Below, one piece after another: positions 3,029 through 11,626 of a stretch of DNA of 64,000 nucleotides. Position 1 is the first letter of the stretch. Every line of letters starts with the position of its first letter. Below the pieces are notes generated by a model. That model was not told where the DNA came from, did no database searches, and was given only the letters and a program-made list of their open reading frames with translations. This DNA is from an uncultured Planctomycetales bacterium. GTDB lineage: Bacteria; Planctomycetota; Planctomycetia; Pirellulales; S012-138. The stretch covers positions 71,903-135,902 of the forward strand of contig CALBRZ010000133.1 in assembly GCA_937927735.1 (NCBI GenBank). The letters run 5' to 3'. Made by a program: the position numbers and the translations under genes.

Positions 3029-4189
3029 TTACCGCTGGCGCTGATAGAGCGATACGCACGGTTCGTGGCGGGTTCCGTTGGCGTCGGTAATGGAGAACTT
3101 ATCGGGCCCCCACATGCTCAGCCCGGCGTGCCGCCCATCCTTGGCCAGCACATAGAACTTGAGGTTGAACTTGGGGCGGCCTTGATCGTCGCGCAGACGG
3201 GCCGGCGTGGTCTTGGCCACGCGACGCAGCACTTCCAGACCGGCCTCTTCGGGCGAGTAGCCCTGACGCATCAGTTCCACGGCGGCAAAGCTGCACAGGT
3301 TCTGCAGGTTCGCCTCGCCGCGACCGGTGCTGCCGCACGATCCAACTTCGTTGTCGACATACAGCCCGGCCCCGATGATCGGCGAGTCGCCCACGCGGCC
3401 AGGCAGCTTGAACGCCAGGCCGCTGGTGCTGGTCACGCCTGAGATATCGCCATCGGCATTCATCGTGGCCAGATGGATGGTGCCTGTCGGCCGGTTGAAG
3501 AACTGCTTGACGTCCGGATCGAGCTGATCGTCGGGCGGCGGCAGCCAGTCGTCGATATCGCTGCGAGTCTGCTTCCAATAGAGCCAGATCTTGCGGGCTT
3601 TTTCCGTGAGCAGGTTTTCTTCTTTGAACCCCTGTGCCCGGGCAAAATCCATCGCTCCCTGGCCGACCAGCAGCACATGATCGGTCTGCTGCATGACCAA
3701 CATGGCCAGCCGCGAAACATGTCGATAGTTCTGTACGGCCGCCACCGCACCGGCCTGGTGCGTGGGCCCATGCATCACCGAGGCATCCAGTTCGACGATG
3801 CCGTTCTCGTTGGGCAAACCGCCGTAGCCCACCGTGAGATCGTTGGGGTCGTCCTCCACGATTTGCACGCCGGCGACGGCCGCTTCGAGCGTGTCCTTGC
3901 CTTCCAGCAGCAGTTCGTACGCGCGGCGGGTGGCTTCCAGACCGTTGTGCGACGAGATCGCCTTTACGGGGAACTTGCCCTTGGCCGGCAGGGGAGGCCG
4001 CTGCGGTTGCGGGCGTGCACCGCCAGATGCCTGCGCGGCCCCGGCAGCCGGCAAGGCTGGTCCCTGGGAGGTGCCGGAACCTGGCTGCCCGGCATGCAGG
4101 CTGGCAGCAACCGTTAACGAAGTGGCCGACAAGGCGGTTGCCGCCGCCCCGCGCAAGAACTCGCGGCGTCCGGAAACTTGGTGCGTCAT
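3029..4189 (-). CDS. Tat-exported Ntn-hydrolase of the asparaginase-2 family (glycosylasparaginase or isoaspartyl peptidase type)
   Basis: The internal start MTHQVSGRREFLRGAAATALSATSL (ATG at 4189) carries a twin-arginine motif. The family signature is present: GTIHLATMNADGDISGVTSTSGLAFKLPGRVGDSPIIGAGLYVDNEVGSCGSTGRGE. The start lies 14 nt downstream of the stop of the preceding gene. Confidence 0.8.
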   Translation of the reverse strand: MTHQVSGRREFLRGAAATALSATSLTVAASLHAGQPGSGTSQGPALPAAGAAQASGGARPQPQRPPLPAKGKFPVKAISSHNGLEATRRAYELLLEGKDTLEAAVAGVQIVEDDPNDLTVGYGGLPNENGIVELDASVMHGPTHQAGAVAAVQNYRHVSRLAMLVMQQTDHVLLVGQGAMDFARAQGFKEENLLTEKARKIWLYWKQTRSDIDDWLPPPDDQLDPDVKQFFNRPTGTIHLATMNADGDISGVTSTSGLAFKLPGRVGDSPIIGAGLYVDNEVGSCGSTGRGEANLQNLCSFAAVELMRQGYSPEEAGLEVLRRVAKTTPARLRDDQGRPKFNLKFYVLAKDGRHAGLSMWGPDKFSITDANGTRHEPCVSLYQRQR

Positions 4190-4203: not shown

Positions 4204-6120
4204 TCACACGAAGAACAGCTCGTACAGGTTCCACAACCCGGTCAGGAGCAGTCCCAAGAACGAAATCACCAGCAGCACGTCCCACACGCGGCCAGGCCGC
4301 AACCGCGGATCGGTCCGGGTAAAGCGGAAGTAAACCGCCGCGAAGCCCAGCACCGGCAACATCAGCGCCTGCATGAACGCGCCGGCCAGTACCAGCGTAA
4401 CTGGGTTCAAGCCCGATGCATACGTGATCACGCATACAATCGGGATACCGACGCAGAAGGCCGAGATCGACCGCTGATGCGACACTTCGTTGTTGGCGTC
4501 GATCAAGTCAAAGAGTTTGAGGCTGTCGGTATACGTCCGCGAGTGGCCGGCCGTAGCGACCAAGAAGGTCGAGTACAGTACGGCAATCGCCCCCACCAGG
4601 AACAACCACGGGGCATACTCGCCAAACACCGGACGGTATTGCTCCATCAGCGTGCTGACCATCCGCATACCGTCGGGCACCAGCCCTTGCTTGTACAGCA
4701 CGGCAACGCCCATCAAGAAAAAGGCCAGGGTGGCAACGGTGTAAATGATCATCGACACAAAGGCGTCGTAGTGCATTACCCGCAACCAACCCTTGGCACG
4801 ACGTTCCCAGGCGGGGTCGTCGCTCTTCGGCCCAGTGAATCGGGCGTAGCCTTTCTCCAAGCACCAGTACGGGTACGCGATGAGCTCAGTGGCTCCCACG
4901 CCGATGATGCCGAACGTGGCCAGCGCGGTGGCCAAACCGCCGCCCTCAGGCAGGCCGAAGCCGCGGAGAAAATCGCTGAGTTCCAGCCGGAACTTCGGCT
5001 GCATCTCCAGCGCGATCACGTTACCGACGGTCACAAAGGTGAACGTGACCACCAGCACCGTCGAAAGATTCTCCACCACGCGATAGCGGCCGCGGTACAA
5101 CAGGGCAATCGTCACCACCGCCGCGATGGCGGCCCAGATCTTGTCGTCCCGCGTTTGTGGTTCCAGCAGCGCGTTGACCTTGGCCTTGGCCGCTTTCACG
5201 GCAGCTTCGTTGGCCTTGGTCACTTCTTCCAGATGCTGCCGAGCCTGGGCGACAGACGCGGCATCGGCCGATGGTGACACCTCAACCTGGGCAAGCTCTT
5301 GTTTGGCCTGCTCAATTGGATTCTCCGCCGCAATCAACTCGAGCACGGCAGCCCTGGCTGCGACGATCCGCTCGCGATGCTCTTCAAGCTGCCGCTCCAG
5401 CGATTCGATGTGCCGCGTGTTCTTGGCCGAGCCGGCGTCGGGCGATTCGCGCAATTCCGTGAGCGTATCCAGCCATGCCTGGCGGTTCAGCTTGCGATCG
5501 AGAAACTCCTGCCCCAGCCGGATGCGTTTCAGCTTGGCCTCGAGTTCTTGCCGCTCCGTGCCGGTCAGTTCCGCCAGCCGCTGCTCTTCGACCGGCAGTT
5601 GCTCCTCCCAGTGCAAGTAGCGTTTCCACTCGCGTTCCGAGGGCAGGGCAATGGCCCGCACGTAATCGCCGTAGATCGGGCAAGCAATGGCCAGCGATTG
5701 CCCGACGCCACCTACGATGCCGCCAAGCTGCCCGACGCTGGCCAGCATCATCAGAAACCACCACCAGACAATCCAATTGACCTTGGCCCTGGGGCCGGGC
5801 ACGGTGTCCAAGGCGGCCAGCGTGGTTTGACCGTTACAGATGGTGTACCGCCCCAGCTCGATCTGGCAGAACACCTTGATCAGGCAGCCCACGATGATGA
5901 GCCACAACAGGCTGATGCCGGCTTCGGCCGCCGTCTTGGTAGTGGCGATCAATTCGCCGGAGCCGACGATGCTGCCGGCGATGATGAGGCCCGGCCCGAG
6001 CCGCCGCATCGTCTTCCAGAACGTGGTGGGCGGCTCTTGGACGGTACTAACCGTGTCCTGGCGAGGCTCGGACGATTGCGGCGCGTCGTCGCCAGGGTTG
6101 CGTTGCGATAGCTGGCTCAT
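4204..6120 (-). CDS. Nramp-fold (APC/LeuT-type) membrane transporter homologue with atypical motifs and a large coiled-coil insertion
   Basis: Track ORF 4204..6243; probable start is MSQLSQRNP (ATG at 6120). The TM1 region RRLGPGLIIAGSIVGSGELIATTKTAAEAGISLLWLII aligns by eye to the MntH TM1 block, but DPGN is replaced by GSGEL. A later block FGIIGVGATELIAYPYW replaces the MPHN block. About 180 charged, helical residues are inserted between them (about 5140..5673). Confidence 0.75.
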   Translation of the reverse strand: MSQLSQRNPGDDAPQSSEPRQDTVSTVQEPPTTFWKTMRRLGPGLIIAGSIVGSGELIATTKTAAEAGISLLWLIIVGCLIKVFCQIELGRYTICNGQTTLAALDTVPGPRAKVNWIVWWWFLMMLASVGQLGGIVGGVGQSLAIACPIYGDYVRAIALPSEREWKRYLHWEEQLPVEEQRLAELTGTERQELEAKLKRIRLGQEFLDRKLNRQAWLDTLTELRESPDAGSAKNTRHIESLERQLEEHRERIVAARAAVLELIAAENPIEQAKQELAQVEVSPSADAASVAQARQHLEEVTKANEAAVKAAKAKVNALLEPQTRDDKIWAAIAAVVTIALLYRGRYRVVENLSTVLVVTFTFVTVGNVIALEMQPKFRLELSDFLRGFGLPEGGGLATALATFGIIGVGATELIAYPYWCLEKGYARFTGPKSDDPAWERRAKGWLRVMHYDAFVSMIIYTVATLAFFLMGVAVLYKQGLVPDGMRMVSTLMEQYRPVFGEYAPWLFLVGAIAVLYSTFLVATAGHSRTYTDSLKLFDLIDANNEVSHQRSISAFCVGIPIVCVITYASGLNPVTLVLAGAFMQALMLPVLGFAAVYFRFTRTDPRLRPGRVWDVLLVISFLGLLLTGLWNLYELFFV

Positions 6121-6486
6121 ACAGCGGTTCTCTTGCGCCGGACGTGCCGATCGGCGAAGGCCAACTGCGTCTGGTGCCGCGAGCGGCGGCGCCAGGGCAC
6201 GCGGTAATCTCGTCACCGCCCCCCAATCCCCCTGCCGCGCCATTTCGCCGCCATGGCAGACACAGGCAGCTTATTCCCCAAAGTGGCGATTCTGCCCCAT
6301 GCCTTAGGCCGTTGCAAGCTTTGGCTGGGGGCATGCCAGGAAAGCACCCCGCGCAGCAGAACCCGGCACCGCAAGAAATGGGTACCGCAACATGCGCGAT
6401 GCAAACGCACCGAGTGCAGCGCGCAACGCGTGACCGCTCGATAGAAGAGAAGGAAGAGAAGACAGTGCAAGCCGCGTGTGACGTTC

Positions 6487-7452
6487 TTAGCCGCGGAAGA
6501 ACTCGTGGCAGGCGCTGCAGGCTTTGTTGATGCCGCCGACGGCCGACTGCACTTGTTCGAGACTGTTCGTCTTCAGCCCGCTGATGATGTTGGCGCACTC
6601 GTTCTCGATGGCTACGGCGTGTTCGATGTAGCTATCGTCGTCAGCGTACTCGTAACTGCTATCCTGGATCACCTTGGCCAGCATCCGCAGAATCTCAGCC
6701 TCATGCAGGATCTTGTCCTTGTTGGCTTCAAAGTCCGCCTTATTGGCCGTGAGGGGCTTGAGGCCGCGGTCCAATGCGTCTTCCATCCGCTGCATCAGCG
6801 GCGGACGGTTGGCCACCTTCTCGTTATACGGCACTTTCGTTTCCGCCTGGGGCACGTCGACCGACGAGCCGCGGACCAGCGACTGCAGGTCTTCATACCG
6901 CATCTTGGCTTCGTTGAAGGCGCCCTGCGAGGCCACTTTGCAGTTGAACGCGCTGCGGCCCACGATGTCGCGCATGCCGGCCGCCTTGTCTTTGAAGCGG
7001 ACATCGCCTTCGTACTCGGCGATCACGGCAAAGCACACGGCCAGCACACTATAAACCTTGCGCGTGGTGCGGTGGCCCGTGTTGAACTTGCCCAACGAGG
7101 ACACGGTGTCGGCTACTTCCAGCACGCCCTTCTTGATTTCGCCCTCGAGCGTGTCCGACGAAATGATGTCCTTCCAACCACCGCCGGAGCTGCCGGCGCC
7201 ACCGCTCGCTGCGCCAGCCGGAGCCGCGCCTCCCGGCGCCGCCATCGCCGGCGTGCTGCTAGCCACCACCTGACCGCCAGGTTGTCCGGGCCCCACCGCC
7301 TGGCGAAGGTCGGGGAAGAACTTGTTGATGAGCGACTGGTCGAACTTCTGCGGCGGCAGGGTCTTGCCCTGCGGCGGAGCCTGACCGGCAAGCGTCCCCA
7401 CCAGGACGACGATGGCAGTCACCACGGCGAGTCCGGCCAGTTTGCTTCGCAT
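6487..7452 (-). CDS. Membrane-anchored or exported class II (cytochrome c-prime-like) c-type cytochrome
   Basis: The start MRSKLAGLAVVTAIVVLVGTLAG (ATG at 7452) is a hydrophobic anchor or signal. A Gly/Ala/Pro-rich linker and a helical domain follow. A single CSACH heme-binding motif sits five residues from the C-terminus (..INKACSACHEFFRG), which is the typical position in class II four-helix-bundle cytochromes c. Confidence 0.65.
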   Translation of the reverse strand: MRSKLAGLAVVTAIVVLVGTLAGQAPPQGKTLPPQKFDQSLINKFFPDLRQAVGPGQPGGQVVASSTPAMAAPGGAAPAGAASGGAGSSGGGWKDIISSDTLEGEIKKGVLEVADTVSSLGKFNTGHRTTRKVYSVLAVCFAVIAEYEGDVRFKDKAAGMRDIVGRSAFNCKVASQGAFNEAKMRYEDLQSLVRGSSVDVPQAETKVPYNEKVANRPPLMQRMEDALDRGLKPLTANKADFEANKDKILHEAEILRMLAKVIQDSSYEYADDDSYIEHAVAIENECANIISGLKTNSLEQVQSAVGGINKACSACHEFFRG

Positions 7453-7922
7453 GAGTATTCCCCCTGCTCCGGTGGGATGAGATCTTGGCACAACGTGCAG
7501 CGGCCGACAACGTCCAGGCGGCCTGATCCACTGCGTCCATTATTGAACAAGGAGCCGACCCCAGCAACGGCCGGGGCGATGAATCGGCCGTAGTGACGCT
7601 TCCGCTCGGACCACGCCCCTTTTCCGGCAAGGCAGAAAGCCTGCGCAACCCGCATAATCCGCTGCCTTCCCCCCAGCCGTGAAATGTCCCGTAGACGGGC
7701 CGCTTACGCCTTCGCGCAGTCCGCACCTTTGGGGAAAATGCTGTCATCCGCCGGAAGGGGAGCCACACAGTAGCGCAGGCCGGCGGTAAAGCCTTCCCTG
7801 CCCGCATACTTCCCCTTGCTGGTTAGCCCGCAAAGCTTTAACATGCACGCTTTGGTTGCACTGCATGTTACGGCCCGGCAGCCGGCGCGGCGCCGGGCCG
7901 TTTACGTTCATACAGGTCAGAC

Positions 7923-8330
7923 GTGGACGCATTTGTGAACCATCTGCTGCTAGCACAAGCCCAAGAAGGGCAGCCAGGGCAAGCCGCTCCGGCGGCACCG
8001 CAACGGGGGCCGGGCCAGGCTCCAGCCTGCGGGCAAGATCTGGGCATGCTGCCGTTCTTCATCGGCATGATCGTGCTGTTCTACTTCTTGATGGTCCGCC
8101 CGCAGGCCCGCGAGCGGCAGCGGCGCACCGAGATGCTGTCGCAACTCAAGAAGAACGACAAGGTTGTGACGATCGGCGGCATCATCGGCGTGATCAGCAG
8201 CATCCACGCGGAAACCGACGAGGTGGTGATCCGCGTCGATGAAACGAACAACACCAAGCTGCGGGTTTTGCGCAGCTCCATCCATCAAGTCATCACGGAC
8301 GAACCCGAAGGCGAGAAATCGTCGAAGTAA
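7923..8330 (+). CDS. yajC: Preprotein translocase subunit YajC
   Basis: The block LPFFIGMIVLFYFLMVRPQARERQRRTEMLSQLKKNDKVVTIGGIIGVISSI matches the YajC TM segment followed by the RPQ..K..GD.V.T.GG.G signature. It lies immediately upstream of secDF. The GTG start at 7923 is uncertain by a few codons. Confidence 0.85.
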   Translation: MDAFVNHLLLAQAQEGQPGQAAPAAPQRGPGQAPACGQDLGMLPFFIGMIVLFYFLMVRPQARERQRRTEMLSQLKKNDKVVTIGGIIGVISSIHAETDEVVIRVDETNNTKLRVLRSSIHQVITDEPEGEKSSK

Positions 8331-8344
8331 CGTAGGGAATAGTT

Positions 8345-11300
8345 ATGTTCGCGAGCTTTTCGTACGCCTTGTTCGCGCAAGCCGCGGGGGCGAACAACGC
8401 CGCAGCTCAAGCCGGTGCCGACGGAGTCGGCCCCGGCCTGAAACTGCTGATCATTGTCGCCATCGTCGCCCTGTCTTACGTCCTGGGGCGATTCCTCAGT
8501 AGCCGGCTCCGCATGCCGGATACCTCGTGGCGCATCTCCTTGGTCCTCTTCGCCTTGCTGCTGAGCGGCCTGATCGTCGCCACGGGCACCGTCAAGCTGG
8601 GCATCGACCTGGCCGGTGGTGCGATCTTCGTCTACGAGTACGAACCGCGCGAGGGGCAGGACTTCCAGATCGATCGGCTGATCGCCGCCGTTCGCGAGCG
8701 TATCGACCCCGCCGGCGTGCAGCAGATCACGATCCGGCCCTTTGGCGTGAACCAGATCGAGATCATCGTGCCGGAGATTCCGGCGGCCGAGATCGAACAG
8801 CTCCAGAATAAGATCGAAAACCTGGGCGAACTGGAGTTCTTGATCACCGCCAACCACAACGATCACCAGCCCATCATCCAGATCGCGACCCGCGAAGGGG
8901 CGCCCAAGCAAATCATTCGCGACGGCCGGCTGTTGGCCTCGTGGATTCCCGTTCAGAACAAGCCCGACACCATCGAGTCCATGAGCCGGGGCGACTACAT
9001 CACCCGCACCGGCGAGAATGGCCGCCTCGAAGTGCTCGTGGTCCATCCCACCAGCGAATCGCAGCGGGTGACGGGCACCAACCTGTTGCGCGTGGCCCCC
9101 GAAATCGATCCCCAAGGCCGGCCCTCGCTCAGCTTCCACTTCGATGCGGAAGGCGGTCGGGCCTTTGCCAATCTGACCCGGGCCAACCAGCCCACGGGCC
9201 TGGAAAGCGGCCGGCCGTTCTACCGGCATCTGGCCGTGGTGCTTAACGGCGAGATTGCCTCGGCCCCGACGATCAACGCGGTGATCAGTACTGACGGCGT
9301 GATCGAAGGTAACTTCACCGTACAGGAGCGCGATGAACTGATCGCCGTGCTCAACGCCGGTGCGCTGCCTGCCGAGCTGACCCCCACCCGGGCTCGCTTC
9401 GTCGCTGCCACGCTGGGCGAAGACATGGTCCGCCGGGGTAAGTTTTCGATCGCGGCATCGCTCGTAGCAGTGCTGCTGTTCGTACTGGTGTACTACCGCT
9501 TTGCCGGCTTCGTGGCCTGCTTGGCCCTGCTGGCAAACCTGCTGCTGATCATGGCCTTGATGATCTCCGTCAAGGCAGCGTTCACTCTGGCCGGCCTGGC
9601 AGGTTTGGTGCTCACGGTCGGTATGGCGGTCGACGCCAACGTGCTGATCTTCGAGCGCATCCGTGAAGAACTCGATCGCGGAGCCGCCCTGCGGATGGCC
9701 ATCCGCAACGGCTTCTCCCGGGCCACGACCACCATCGTGGACTCCAACCTGACGACGCTCATCACGGCCGTGGTGCTGTACGTGATCGGCACCGACGAAC
9801 TCCGCGGCTTCGCCATCATCCTCATCCTGGGCATCCTGATGAGCATGTTCACGGCGATCTTCTGCTCGCGGCTGGTGTTCGACATCGCCGAGCGGCGCCG
9901 CTGGATCGGCAGCCTGAACATGATGAACCTGATTCGCAATGCGAATTACGACTTCATGGGCAAGCGTGCCGCGTGCCTCACGTTCTCGCTGATCCTGATT
10001 GCCATCGGCCTGGTCGCCGTGGTGGCCCGCGGTCGTTCGATCCTGGGCATCGACTTCACCGGCGGTACTTCGGCGGAAGTGCTGTTCCGCGAAGGCGCCG
10101 ACATCGACATCACCAAGTTCCGCGCCGACATCGACGGCCGCGACGGCTGGAATAATCGTGTGGCTGCCGCCACCCGCGACAACATCCTGGAACTGGTCGG
10201 CCTCCAAGTTGACCGTCAGGTCCGGGCCGCCCTCGAAAGGGCCAACATCCTGCCGCGGTCGATCATCTTGGCGACCGTGGAGGCCGAGCGCGATGGCACG
10301 GCGTTGAACGTCGACCTCAATCTGCCTGAGCCCAAGCCGATTGCCGAGTTCACCGATGAAGAGTTCGCCGCCTACAAGAACGCGGCCATGCTTCCCGACA
10401 CGGCGATCAGCGAAATCACCCAGATCGACGAATCCGATCCGCGGAAGCACTTTTACCTCAACACCTCCAATGCCGATGGCACGGTGGTGGAGGCCGTCTT
10501 GACCCAACTGTTCAAGGGTCAATTGGCCAGTAACAGCATCGTGAGCGTGCAACTAGCCGGCGGCCAGGAAGAGCCGGGGCCGAAGACCTCGCTGCGGCGG
10601 CGGACACGCAGCGGCGGCGACCTGCTGATCGCCGCGGCCGATGATCAGGTTCTGCCGGTGCTGCTGGCGCAGAACACGGCCGCCCCGGCCGCGGGCGCGG
10701 CGGCTCCGGCCGGCGATGCCCAAGCGGTTGCCGATGATGCCGGCGACGAAGTCGCTCCCGGTTATGATCCGCGGCAGCCAGCGCTGGAGTTCCAGTTGAA
10801 GTTCGCGGAACTGATCAGCCACGACGACGTGGTGAAGCTGCTCCAGAACTCGGCCTTGCCGCCCGGCACCGAAGTGACGGCCACCCACCCGGACTACACG
10901 CCCGGCAGCACCGTCTCCTTCGACACCTGGACGGTAAGCATCCCGGCCAGCGAAGCCGAAGCTCGCGCGGCTATTGCCCAGGCCAACGACATCCTGGCCA
11001 CGCAGCCGTACTTCCCCTCGATCGACAACATCCAGGGTAGTGTGGCGGCCCGGACCGCCGGCCAGGCCATCGCGGCGATCTTCGCCTGCCTGGTGGGCAT
11101 CGTGATCTACATCTGGATCCGGTTCCAGCGGGTATCGTATGGTCTGGCGGCGGCAATCGCCCTGGTGCACGACGTGCTCATCGTGCTGGGTGCGGTGGCC
11201 ATTTCGGCTTACCTGGTCGCCATCCCGTTCATCGATCCGTTCAAGATCTCGCTGGACATGGTGGCCGCGTTCCTCACGATCATGGGTTACTCGCTGAACG

Positions 11301-11626
11301 ACACGATCGTGATCTTCGACCGCATCCGCGAAGTGAAGGGCAAGAGCCCGAACATCACCATTGCGATGCTCAACCGCAGCATCAACCAGACGCTGTCGCG
11401 TACGTTGCTCACCTCGGGTACGACGTTGATCGTGACGGTGATTCTGTTCTTCTTCGCCGGCCAGGCGATCCACGGTTTTGCCTTCGCCCTGTGCGTCGGC
11501 GTGGTGTTCGGTACCTACAGCTCGATCTTCATCGCCGCTCCGCTGCTGGCGTGGCTCAGCAAGACGCCGGTGGATGAGCACGCGACCGAGGCTGTTCCGG
11601 CCAAGCCGCTGCCCAGCAGCGTGTAA
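8345..11626 (+). CDS. secDF: Protein translocase subunit SecDF fusion, with an expanded periplasmic domain in the SecF half
   Basis: 1093 aa. The SecD block reads LGEDMVRRGKFSIAASLVAVLLFVLVYYRFAGFVA..GLAGLVLTVGMAVDANVLIFERIREE. The SecF block reads YGLAAAIALVHDVLIVLGAVA..MGYSLNDTIVIFDRIRE. A terminator follows at 11669..11710. Confidence 0.9.
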   Translation: MFASFSYALFAQAAGANNAAAQAGADGVGPGLKLLIIVAIVALSYVLGRFLSSRLRMPDTSWRISLVLFALLLSGLIVATGTVKLGIDLAGGAIFVYEYEPREGQDFQIDRLIAAVRERIDPAGVQQITIRPFGVNQIEIIVPEIPAAEIEQLQNKIENLGELEFLITANHNDHQPIIQIATREGAPKQIIRDGRLLASWIPVQNKPDTIESMSRGDYITRTGENGRLEVLVVHPTSESQRVTGTNLLRVAPEIDPQGRPSLSFHFDAEGGRAFANLTRANQPTGLESGRPFYRHLAVVLNGEIASAPTINAVISTDGVIEGNFTVQERDELIAVLNAGALPAELTPTRARFVAATLGEDMVRRGKFSIAASLVAVLLFVLVYYRFAGFVACLALLANLLLIMALMISVKAAFTLAGLAGLVLTVGMAVDANVLIFERIREELDRGAALRMAIRNGFSRATTTIVDSNLTTLITAVVLYVIGTDELRGFAIILILGILMSMFTAIFCSRLVFDIAERRRWIGSLNMMNLIRNANYDFMGKRAACLTFSLILIAIGLVAVVARGRSILGIDFTGGTSAEVLFREGADIDITKFRADIDGRDGWNNRVAAATRDNILELVGLQVDRQVRAALERANILPRSIILATVEAERDGTALNVDLNLPEPKPIAEFTDEEFAAYKNAAMLPDTAISEITQIDESDPRKHFYLNTSNADGTVVEAVLTQLFKGQLASNSIVSVQLAGGQEEPGPKTSLRRRTRSGGDLLIAAADDQVLPVLLAQNTAAPAAGAAAPAGDAQAVADDAGDEVAPGYDPRQPALEFQLKFAELISHDDVVKLLQNSALPPGTEVTATHPDYTPGSTVSFDTWTVSIPASEAEARAAIAQANDILATQPYFPSIDNIQGSVAARTAGQAIAAIFACLVGIVIYIWIRFQRVSYGLAAAIALVHDVLIVLGAVAISAYLVAIPFIDPFKISLDMVAAFLTIMGYSLNDTIVIFDRIREVKGKSPNITIAMLNRSINQTLSRTLLTSGTTLIVTVILFFFAGQAIHGFAFALCVGVVFGTYSSIFIAAPLLAWLSKTPVDEHATEAVPAKPLPSSV

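Follow-up and report, generated by a model that had tools for sequence, protein, structure and literature searches.

Nramp-related transporters with a conserved Glu/Glu/Lys centre and, in a mainly planctomycete subclade, a predicted periplasmic helical domain

Introduction

The Pfam family PF01566 comprises Slc11, an outgroup and the NRMTs (Cellier), and its characterised members all carry metal cations: the Mn/Fe Nramps, the Mg2+ carrier EleNRMT (PMC8806188), and YcsG/MntG of Bacillus subtilis, a differently diverged Nramp-related protein that is reported to import Mn2+ (PMC10448178). The Asp of transmembrane helix 1 (TM1) is universally conserved in SLC11 and essential for transport, and a Gln of TM10 has a metal-coordinating role (Ramanadane et al., PMC8806188). 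A 2026 preprint from the Gaudet laboratory (PMC12873925) names an 'NRMT-like' group and 'G-motif 3' (YcsG/MntG), and calls the remaining Nramp-related groups 'entirely uncharacterized'. Here we analyse a gene in a 64,000-nt stretch of contig CALBRZ010000133.1 from an uncultured Planctomycetales bacterium (hereafter the window), whose product has a predicted Nramp-type fold, carries invariant Glu and Lys residues where canonical Nramps have other ones, and contains a helical domain of about 180 residues between TM3 and TM4.

Results

The product is Nramp-related, not a canonical Nramp

The gene (Table 1) lies in an open reading frame (ORF) spanning 4204..6243 on the reverse strand. Translation from the Met codon at 6120 (MSQLSQ...) to the stop codon at 4204-4206 yields 638 amino acids (aa), a start that agrees with the gene calls of orthologues 87% (P0002, 638 aa) and 82% (P0003, 639 aa) identical; the coordinates of all parts were verified by translation. 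The product scored above the curated cut-offs of both Pfam PF01566 (48 bits, where the gathering score is 29.8; E = 1.2e-12) and NCBIfam NF037982, 'Nramp_1' (104.8 bits against 50; E = 5.6e-30), and fell far short of the true MntH models NF001923 (32.2 bits against 430) and TIGR01197 (14.7 bits against 272.5). By sequence, the nearest solved protein was EleNRMT, at 65 bits with the clade profile. The transporter is therefore a PF01566 member of the 'Nramp-related' zone and not a canonical Nramp.

An AlphaFold model computed with 114 homologues as input (predicted local distance difference test, pLDDT, 89.7; predicted template modelling score, pTM, 0.88) has a LeuT-type fold in which TM1 is broken at residues 53-54 and TM6 at 407-409, with residues 1-25 predicted to be disordered. 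When this model was compared with the PDB by Foldseek, DraNramp ranked first (probability 1.0, TM-score up to 0.78 on the target), followed by B. subtilis YcsG, EleNRMT, BfraNramp and human NRAMP1, with amino-acid carriers and those of the neurotransmitter:sodium symporter (NSS) type lower. Membership in another family within the APC (amino acid-polyamine-organocation) carriers was considered and rejected: the Pfam permease profiles PF00324 and PF13520 gave no match at E <= 1, the Pfam K_trans profile gave none, and solved APC carriers stood below all Nramps in the Foldseek ranking. The Nramp fold proposed in an initial annotation, made from the sequence of the window by a model, is thus borne out by family cut-offs, predicted structure and Foldseek alike. 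The peptide strings quoted there were all found in the translation, and the other APC origin that it had allowed for showed no profile similarity beyond noise.

The canonical ligand motifs of TM1 and TM6 are replaced

At the TM1 break, alignments to EleNRMT (which has DAGG here), to E. coli MntH and to DraNramp/BfraNramp placed G53-S54-G55-E56 on the canonical D-P-G-N in the same register, and residues 45-62 contain neither Asp nor Asn. The register of TM6 is uncertain by about two residues, with HMMER placing V408/T411/E412/L413 on A227/M230/P231/H232 of DraNramp and G409/T411/E412 on Met/His/Asn of BfraNramp; in these alternative registers E412 is at most one residue from the canonical TM6b His position. 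Sequence does not fix this register: the hhalign alignment to E. coli MntH spans TM1-TM3 only, in scans of truncated fragments the NF037982 score gains nothing from TM6, and the two HMMER registers lie two residues apart. In any register the canonical TM6 ligands are nevertheless absent, since Met, His, Asp, Asn and Cys are all missing from residues 404-418 (GIIGVGATELIAYPY), and the A-x-x-M-P-H motif is lacking, its Met and His being missing wherever the helix is placed. The initial annotation had matched GSGEL to DPGN and GVGATEL to the TM6 MPH motif by eye, with removal of the Asp, Asn, Met and His ligands. Three independent alignments concur for TM1, the TM6 replacement stands with its exact register uncertain by those two residues, and profile alignment restored none of the four ligands.

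The residues that form the proton path of canonical Nramps are absent as well. TM3 is devoid of acidic residues, so that the alignments show no counterpart of Dra E124, D131 and E134, and the TM9 Arg pair is replaced by Ser553 and Ala554, as anchored on the conserved TM9 proline. Two glutamines occupy related positions (Table 1): Q131, which is invariant in alignment A1 and common, not invariant, in the short-loop branch described below, and Q584, which is likewise invariant in A1.

A Glu/Glu/Lys centre is conserved across the clade

The glutamates of the two replaced motifs, E56 and E412, are invariant among close homologues (121/121), and GSGEL and GVGA(S/T)EL are invariant in the 120 closest. 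Conservation extends to a short-loop branch, formed by basal clade members of about 450 aa whose TM3-TM4 loop has 7-8 residues. Here IVGSGEL is present in 116/117 relatives and Glu occupies the TM6 position in every one of the 115 with a readable TM6 motif, with rare Asp and one Gln among representatives. The Lys at position 82, where DraNramp and the canonical Nramps have Ala and EleNRMT has Leu, is a third clade-specific residue, and the TM6b signature is kept in the short-loop branch as YxYWCxEKGY, almost as constant as K82. Altogether, E56, E412, K82 and YPYWCxEKGY are kept across about 270 sampled homologues, at identities down to about 28%.

Among planctomycete homologues the membrane core is 65-92% identical, against 30-76% for the insertion. 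Because E56, E412 and K82 are invariant and core identity is above that of the insertion, the core site is under strong selection, and the pattern indicates a central site that is rebuilt and not lost, with ligands replaced in a transporter that has not decayed. The initial annotation had treated the motif change as a loss, which the conserved E56, E412, K82 and YPYWCxEKGY contradict. Its suggestion that the protein moves something other than Mn or Fe went further than the motifs allow: E56 and E412 are invariant, therefore a cationic substrate, metal included, is still plausible, as the example of YcsG/MntG also illustrates.

The TM3-TM4 loop carries a folded helical domain

The insertion lies between P148, at the end of TM3, and W329, at the start of TM4, and is flanked by conserved anchors (P-x-x-G-D-Y..A..P-S after TM3 and L-x-P-x-T-x-D-D-K-x-W before TM4). 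In the full model it consists of helices 162-184, 187-212, 214-225, 232-281 and 287-319, mostly with pLDDT above 90, and it is predicted with similar confidence when modelled alone (pLDDT 91.6, pTM 0.83). Its most prominent part is a long antiparallel hairpin, here called the tower (Table 1), whose 50-residue helix would be about 75 Å long if straight. Across the planctomycete subclade, as seen in 121 homologues, the insertion ranges from 88 to 288 aa; the minimal module has about 88 aa and the rest is extra helical material, and comparison with minimal-module homologues identifies the hairpin 232-319 as the part added beyond it.

The insertion is 34% charged with a net charge of -6, and it is net negative in 85% of the 121 homologues. 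Heptad a/d periodicity, assessed by an ad hoc score, reached z = 2.2 against 300 shuffles and was concentrated in residues 232-300, and 17% of 28-residue windows had a heptad score of at least 0.7, vs 4% in shuffles. In the AlphaFold model of the insertion the helices are antiparallel and do not form a canonical parallel coiled coil. A charged helical insertion of some 180 residues between the membrane halves had been placed by the initial annotation at about 5140..5673, which our boundaries match. Its description as heptad-like is weakly borne out by the periodicity just given, and of its coiled coil the helical nature stands, the domain being better described as a helical bundle with a long antiparallel hairpin at its end.

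No Pfam domain matched the insertion, and no fold in the PDB did so (best Foldseek E 0.62, TM-score at most 0.35); the weak, non-significant Foldseek neighbours were generic hairpins such as the LSD1 tower, SipB, AcrA, TolC and KpsE. Neither the canonical Nramps nor any solved structure has an equivalent of this domain. In our searches of the literature on Nramp, PF01566 and MntH in planctomycetes we found no description of it, and the word 'insertion' does not occur in PMC12873925. The possibility, raised in the initial annotation, that the insertion is a common and already annotated feature does not hold: it is common in the subclade, yet has no Pfam match and no published description that we could find.

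A cytoplasmic N-terminus places the TM3-TM4 loop of a LeuT fold on the outer side of the membrane. Given this topology and the distribution of positive charge (21 Lys and Arg in predicted cytoplasmic loops vs 6 in the short periplasmic ones), the insertion is, as modelled, an expanded extracellular loop 2 that faces the periplasm, a predicted answer to the question of sidedness that the initial annotation had raised. The interaction domain proposed there is one possibility for its role.

A rough neighbour-joining tree, rooted on canonical Nramps, has short-loop members at its base and one derived, mainly planctomycete subclade in which the loop becomes progressively longer; two or three other loop expansions look independent in the same tree. 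A frameshift or assembly artefact was rejected as the source of the insertion, since an identical protein and orthologues at 87%, 82% and 66% identity carry insertions of nearly equal length, and since the fold is predicted with confidence.

The clade is large and uniformly named as metal transporters

A profile search of 1.84 billion representatives retrieved 2,893 clusters at E <= 1e-3, of which 516 reached E <= 1e-30. Word-indexed searches, in each of which 8,000 candidates were scored so that the counts are lower bounds, returned at least 6,397 proteins at E <= 1e-3 with the insertion-bearing form as query and at least 7,577 at E <= 1e-10 with the short-loop form. The exact motifs occur in at least 597 of 185,579 GTDB species-representative genomes. 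Hosts include Planctomycetota (Planctomycetaceae, Pirellulaceae, Phycisphaeraceae, Kuenenia), Verrucomicrobiota, Acidobacteriota, KSB1, Haliscomenobacter (Bacteroidota), an Archaeoglobi metagenome-assembled genome (MAG) and one eukaryote, Paulinella. The Paulinella micropora protein (P0210, EukProt, 633 aa) has an N-terminal extension, a poly-acidic stretch in its TM6-TM7 loop and a Gln in place of the TM6 Glu (GMSAHQL). As judged from these sequences, the GSGEL/GATEL pair is not peculiar to the window gene and marks out a clade of thousands of proteins, the majority of which lack the insertion.

The clade sits at the edge of the family, the Pfam Nramp profile being reached at E <= 1 by 23/32 short-loop relatives. 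Named members are all labelled 'Nramp family divalent metal transporter', 'manganese transport protein' or 'MntH', and NF037982 is typed as an 'equivalog' under the first of these names. The label 'manganese transporter' is unproven, and the clade-wide naming is likely to be systematic over-annotation. Thousands of genes are thereby named automatically as metal transporters although they lack every residue known to bind metal in Nramps; with those ligands absent, conclusions on metal cycling drawn from such annotations in metagenomes may be wrong.

Genomic context differs between lineages

We surveyed 74 non-redundant loci by calling ORFs and clustering three genes on each side. The commonest neighbour family, a ZIP metal transporter, was found at 6/74 loci; among 38 same-strand neighbours within 150 nt that were scanned against Pfam, no family occurred more than four times; and six other gene contexts that we examined, including two from the short-loop branch, were mutually inconsistent. 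A conserved operon was rejected on these grounds. Neither an MntR-type regulator gene recurred among the neighbours of the 74 loci, nor were pxp genes found there. An Rfam scan of positions 5900-6700 at E <= 1 for a riboswitch or leader RNA returned noise only, and a scan of ten related loci at the gathering threshold returned just a tRNA.

In the window, an asparaginase gene follows the transporter (Table 1). Its start codon lies 14 nt past the transporter stop with no terminator-like site between the two, and the spacing suggests that the two genes are probably co-transcribed. The pair recurs, 15 nt apart, in the 82% orthologue (L001/L002) and is absent from the more distant loci examined, so the asparaginase link is lineage-specific and lies outside any conserved unit.

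A second hydrolase is linked to the clade by fusion. P0180 of Haliscomenobacter sp. (WP_320031189.1, 790 aa) is a short-loop member whose C-terminus is joined to a Beta-lactamase-type serine hydrolase domain of PF00144 (E = 2.6e-57) that has the SxxK motif, an arrangement seen in at least six independent assemblies. The PF00144 domain should be on the periplasmic side, and the fusion may be a Rosetta-stone clue to an organic substrate. Two other extended proteins are doubtful as fusions. In P0135 (990 aa, from a single Logan contig) the transporter is followed in frame by a segment that starts with a lipoprotein-like signal (LLMSAVGC) and has a weak match to a solute-binding protein (SBP_bac_8, E 0.009), possibly two adjacent genes read as one; P0240 is a partial protein.

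The ZIP gene (PF02535, 102 bits) stands beside the clade gene on the opposite strand, in divergent orientation, at L018, L054, L055, L062, L068 and L070; all six loci come from planctomycete MAGs, which may form one lineage. The contextual clues thus conflict, with ZIP pointing to metal and the exported hydrolases to an organic product, and with each confined to one lineage they are suggestive only.

Of the remaining neighbours (Table 1), the 334-aa protein upstream of the transporter matches cytochrome c' (PF01322) just below threshold, at 25.7 vs 26.5 bits, and is the neighbour in L001/L002 as well. The yajC-secDF arrangement is shared with orthologous contigs. From its sequence, the 487-aa protein beyond the asparaginase gene is probably an exported beta-propeller.

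Table 1. Positions of the transporter gene, its parts and its neighbours in the window.
Feature	Position	Strand	Basis
Complete coding sequence, Nramp-related transporter of the GSGE / G-x-G-x-x-E clade	4204..6120	-	ORF list, translation, Pfam/NCBIfam, AlphaFold, Foldseek
N-terminal membrane block, residues 41-148 (TM1a/1b, TM2, TM3)	5677..6000	-	Aligns with EleNRMT 30-153 and E. coli MntH 21-92; model helices
TM1 break motif G53-S54-G55-E56-L57, replacing D-P-G-N-(F/I); E56 is the invariant TM1b Glu	5950..5964	-	Model break 53-54; alignments
K82, TM2, clade-specific Lys	5875..5877	-	Invariant in alignments A1 and A2
Q131, TM3, position of the ancestral TM3 Glu (Dra E134 / Ele E133)	5728..5730	-	Aligned to Glu of FSEFAG in EleNRMT
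TM3-TM4 loop insertion, residues 149-328, all-helical domain	5137..5676	-	Coordinates checked, AlphaFold, homologue comparison
Tower, long antiparallel helical hairpin, residues 232-319 (50-residue helix and 33-residue return)	5164..5427	-	DSSP of both models
C-terminal membrane block, residues 329-638 (TM4-TM11)	4207..5136	-	Pfam Nramp stretch 327-597, NCBIfam stretch 318-589; model helices
TM6 break motif G407-V408-G409-A410-T411-E412-L413, replacing G-A-x-x-M-P-H; E412 is the invariant TM6b Glu	4882..4902	-	Model break 407-409
Clade signature Y416-P-Y-W-C-L-E-K-G-Y425, TM6b and next cytoplasmic turn	4846..4875	-	(Nearly) invariant in A1
Q584, TM10, offset by one turn (+3) from where DraNramp (Q378) and EleNRMT (Q379) have their metal-coordinating Gln	4369..4371	-	Alignment register
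Downstream gene, Asparaginase_2-family Ntn hydrolase with twin-arginine (Tat) export signal (MTHQVSGRREFLRGAAA)	3029..4189	-	Pfam PF01112, 204 bits
487-aa protein with N-terminal hydrophobic (signal-like) segment	1481..2944	-	Weak sub-threshold Kelch, PQQ, PD40 repeats
Upstream 334-aa protein: hydrophobic N-terminal segment, Gly/Ala/Pro-rich linker, C-terminal CSACH haem-binding motif	6487..7491	-	
yajC, then a single fused 1093-aa secDF, divergent from the transporter block	7923..8330 and 8345..11626	+	

Discussion

We consider it slightly better than an even bet that the protein imports a cation, perhaps with proton coupling, and bears a periplasmic tower; jointly with this, the models portray an inner-membrane secondary transporter of LeuT/Nramp fold with 11 TM helices and a cytoplasmic N-terminus. 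Two buried carboxylates at the canonical substrate site argue for a positively charged substrate, and a hard inorganic cation is favoured because every characterised PF01566 protein moves a metal ion and because the remaining conserved side chains are oxygen donors. Such a hard (oxygen-preferring) cation would be held by E56, backbone carbonyls and Ser/Thr/Gln oxygens, and Q131 in TM3 and Q584 in TM10 would complete the polar centre. In KimA, a LeuT-fold K+/H+ symporter, the TM1 residue Asp36 binds the cation and Glu233 of TM6b couples H+ (PMC6994465). By analogy with this acid pair, E412, at the canonical protonatable TM6b His site, may act as the proton-coupling or release switch for the site at E56, and K82 could pair with one Glu as a counter-charge in the empty carrier. 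With its freely varying length, rapid sequence change and mostly acidic composition, the domain is more likely to be structural (a spacer, a device that gathers cations electrostatically, or an arm for docking or oligomerisation) than to be part of the transport site. The divergent ZIP metal transporter at 6/74 loci is consistent with the cation proposal.

Several points weigh against this proposal. The TM1 Asp, described as universal and essential in SLC11, is missing from the clade. Breaks of the G-S-G kind are characteristic of APC carriers for amino acids and polyamines, and a lysine near a cation site is unusual. No metal riboswitch was found in the window or the ten related loci, and no metal-regulon context at the 74 loci. 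The asparaginase operon here and the PF00144 fusion in Haliscomenobacter hint at an organic substrate. The closeness of E56, E412 and K82 in space is deduced from the helix breaks and from homology, and the functions suggested for the tower are conjecture.

Some of these points would be accounted for if the imported substrate were not a metal but an organic cation or an amino compound (an amino acid, an amine, a polyamine or a small peptide product), a reading that we regard as unlikely yet as a serious rival. The G-S-G and G-V-G breaks would then bind substrate through the backbone, as in APC and NSS carriers, the Glu pair and YPYW would recognise ammonium, and the substrate would arise in the periplasm through the action of exported hydrolases. 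The loss of the TM1 Asp in favour of a GSG-type break, an aromatic-rich TM6b signature, the Tat-exported Asparaginase_2 gene 14 nt downstream with its retention in the 82% orthologue, the Haliscomenobacter PF00144 fusion in at least six assemblies, and the amidohydrolase, M19 dipeptidase or sulfatase neighbours of a few loci are all in keeping with it, as is the branching of Nramp-related proteins between NSS carriers and canonical Nramps described in PMC12873925. Against this, amino-acid permease similarity is at noise level, with a single weak match (E 0.016) among 32 short-loop members, each hydrolase link is found in one lineage and the top neighbour family at 6/74 loci, all characterised PF01566 proteins transport metal ions, and there would be repulsion between the Glu pair and the carboxylate that an ordinary amino acid carries. 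A bolder version, which we judge fairly improbable, would put the clade beyond metal transport altogether, whether it left or never had it: a surviving intermediate on the way from NSS or amino-acid carriers to Nramps, with a new substrate class and, in Planctomycetota, a tower that docks to a periplasmic or outer-membrane partner. If true, this would make the protein the inner-membrane component of an uptake assembly, unknown until now, that spans the envelope, with a logic like that of the hairpin contacts in tripartite pumps.

That the protein is instead an ordinary Mn2+/Fe2+ importer of MntH type, whose ligands have shifted so that the carboxylate has moved from the Asp position to +3 (E56), seems improbable. 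The 'equivalog' model NF037982 is passed and database names say MntH or divalent metal transporter; YcsG/MntG, an Nramp-related protein that also lacks the canonical motif, is reported to increase the Mn content of cells (PMC10448178); and binding-site mutants of EcoDMT still carry Mn2+, which points to loose requirements for this ion (PMC8806188). The protein nevertheless lacks the Met that selects transition metals over Ca/Mg, the Asp and both TM6b His, misses the MntH models by far (32 vs 430 and 15 vs 272 bits), and has short-loop relatives of which just 23/32 reach Pfam Nramp at E <= 1; nor did we find a Mn riboswitch or a recurrent MntR-type regulator. It would be more improbable still for the protein to be a sensor or scaffold ('transceptor'), whose carrier core senses a ligand while the tower receives or transmits a signal or anchors an envelope complex. 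The large, self-folding, subclade-specific periplasmic domain and its non-significant likeness to the periplasmic hairpins of AcrA, TolC and KpsE would suit such a role; yet it is the carrier core that is under very strong constraint and the tower that is poorly conserved in sequence and length and absent from most clade members, and neither a signalling domain (in Pfam) nor a conserved partner gene (at the 74 loci) was found.

Whatever the substrate of this putative cation importer, we know of no published account in which an Nramp-type carrier has acquired a large folded periplasmic domain. The stepwise lengthening of a single loop, from 8 to 288 residues, makes it a clean case of domain accretion, and the insertion may relate to the unusual envelope of planctomycetes.

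Comparison with described systems

EleNRMT of Eggerthella lenta (PDB 7QIA; PMC8806188) is the best match among solved proteins by sequence (65 bits), and resembles the window protein in its PF01566 fold, in having no Met or TM6b His and no TM3/TM9 proton path, and in the small residues of its TM1 break. EleNRMT, however, has the TM1 Asp (DxxG), Glu133 in TM3, TxxA/T in TM6 and a short TM3-TM4 loop, where the window protein has GxxE, Q131, a TM6b Glu, a TM2 Lys and the 180-aa loop domain. With Gly53 and Gln131 the window protein departs from the NRMT signature (DxxG, TxxA/T and TM3 Glu), and with a TM1 free of Asp and Asn from DxxN-AxxT of the plant Al3+ carrier NRAT (both PMC8806188). Canonical Nramps (DraNramp, E. 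coli MntH, BfraNramp, human NRAMP1/DMT1) share the fold (probability 1.0, TM-score 0.73-0.78 on the target), a TM1 entered through G-P-G, the breaks in TM1 and TM6 and a full-length profile alignment. They differ in sequence (11-14% identity) and in the DPGN, A-x-x-M-P-H, TM3 Glu/Asp/Glu and TM9 Arg-Arg residues that the window protein lacks, and they are without the loop domain that it has added.

The uncharacterised Nramp-related groups of PMC12873925, the 'G-motif' ones among them, are similar in kind: other residues replace DPGN and MPH there and the proton-path residues are lacking. From the name 'G-motif' and the description 'entirely uncharacterized', the clade probably belongs to one of these groups, and relatives without the motifs being already on record there, the motif aspect of our findings is partly anticipated. 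The YcsG/MntG group ('G-motif 3') is set apart by its distant sequence and by its frequent linkage to pxpABC / nitrogen-metabolism operons, a pxpABC neighbourhood having no equivalent at the clade loci; the YcsG chain 9A52_A was not retrieved by the clade profile at E <= 10, and the likeness is at the level of fold (Foldseek).

For other systems the likeness is one of analogy. The KimA/KUP K+:H+ symporters (PMC6994465) offer a functional parallel, with a TM1 acid and a TM6b Glu (E233) as proposed for E56 and E412; the two kinds of carrier are not detectably related in sequence, and the regulatory domain of KimA is cytoplasmic, not periplasmic. The LSD1 tower and the AcrA and TolC hairpins have a similar distal antiparallel two-helix shape without significant similarity, a structural analogy only. 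Equally structural is the analogy with extracellular loop 2 of eukaryotic NSS/SLC6 carriers, which occupies the same outward position between TM3 and TM4 and is not known to be a helical tower. Seen beside these systems, the conserved Glu/Glu/Lys centre is a natural experiment on selectivity and proton coupling in the LeuT fold and on the emergence of Nramps from non-metal carriers.

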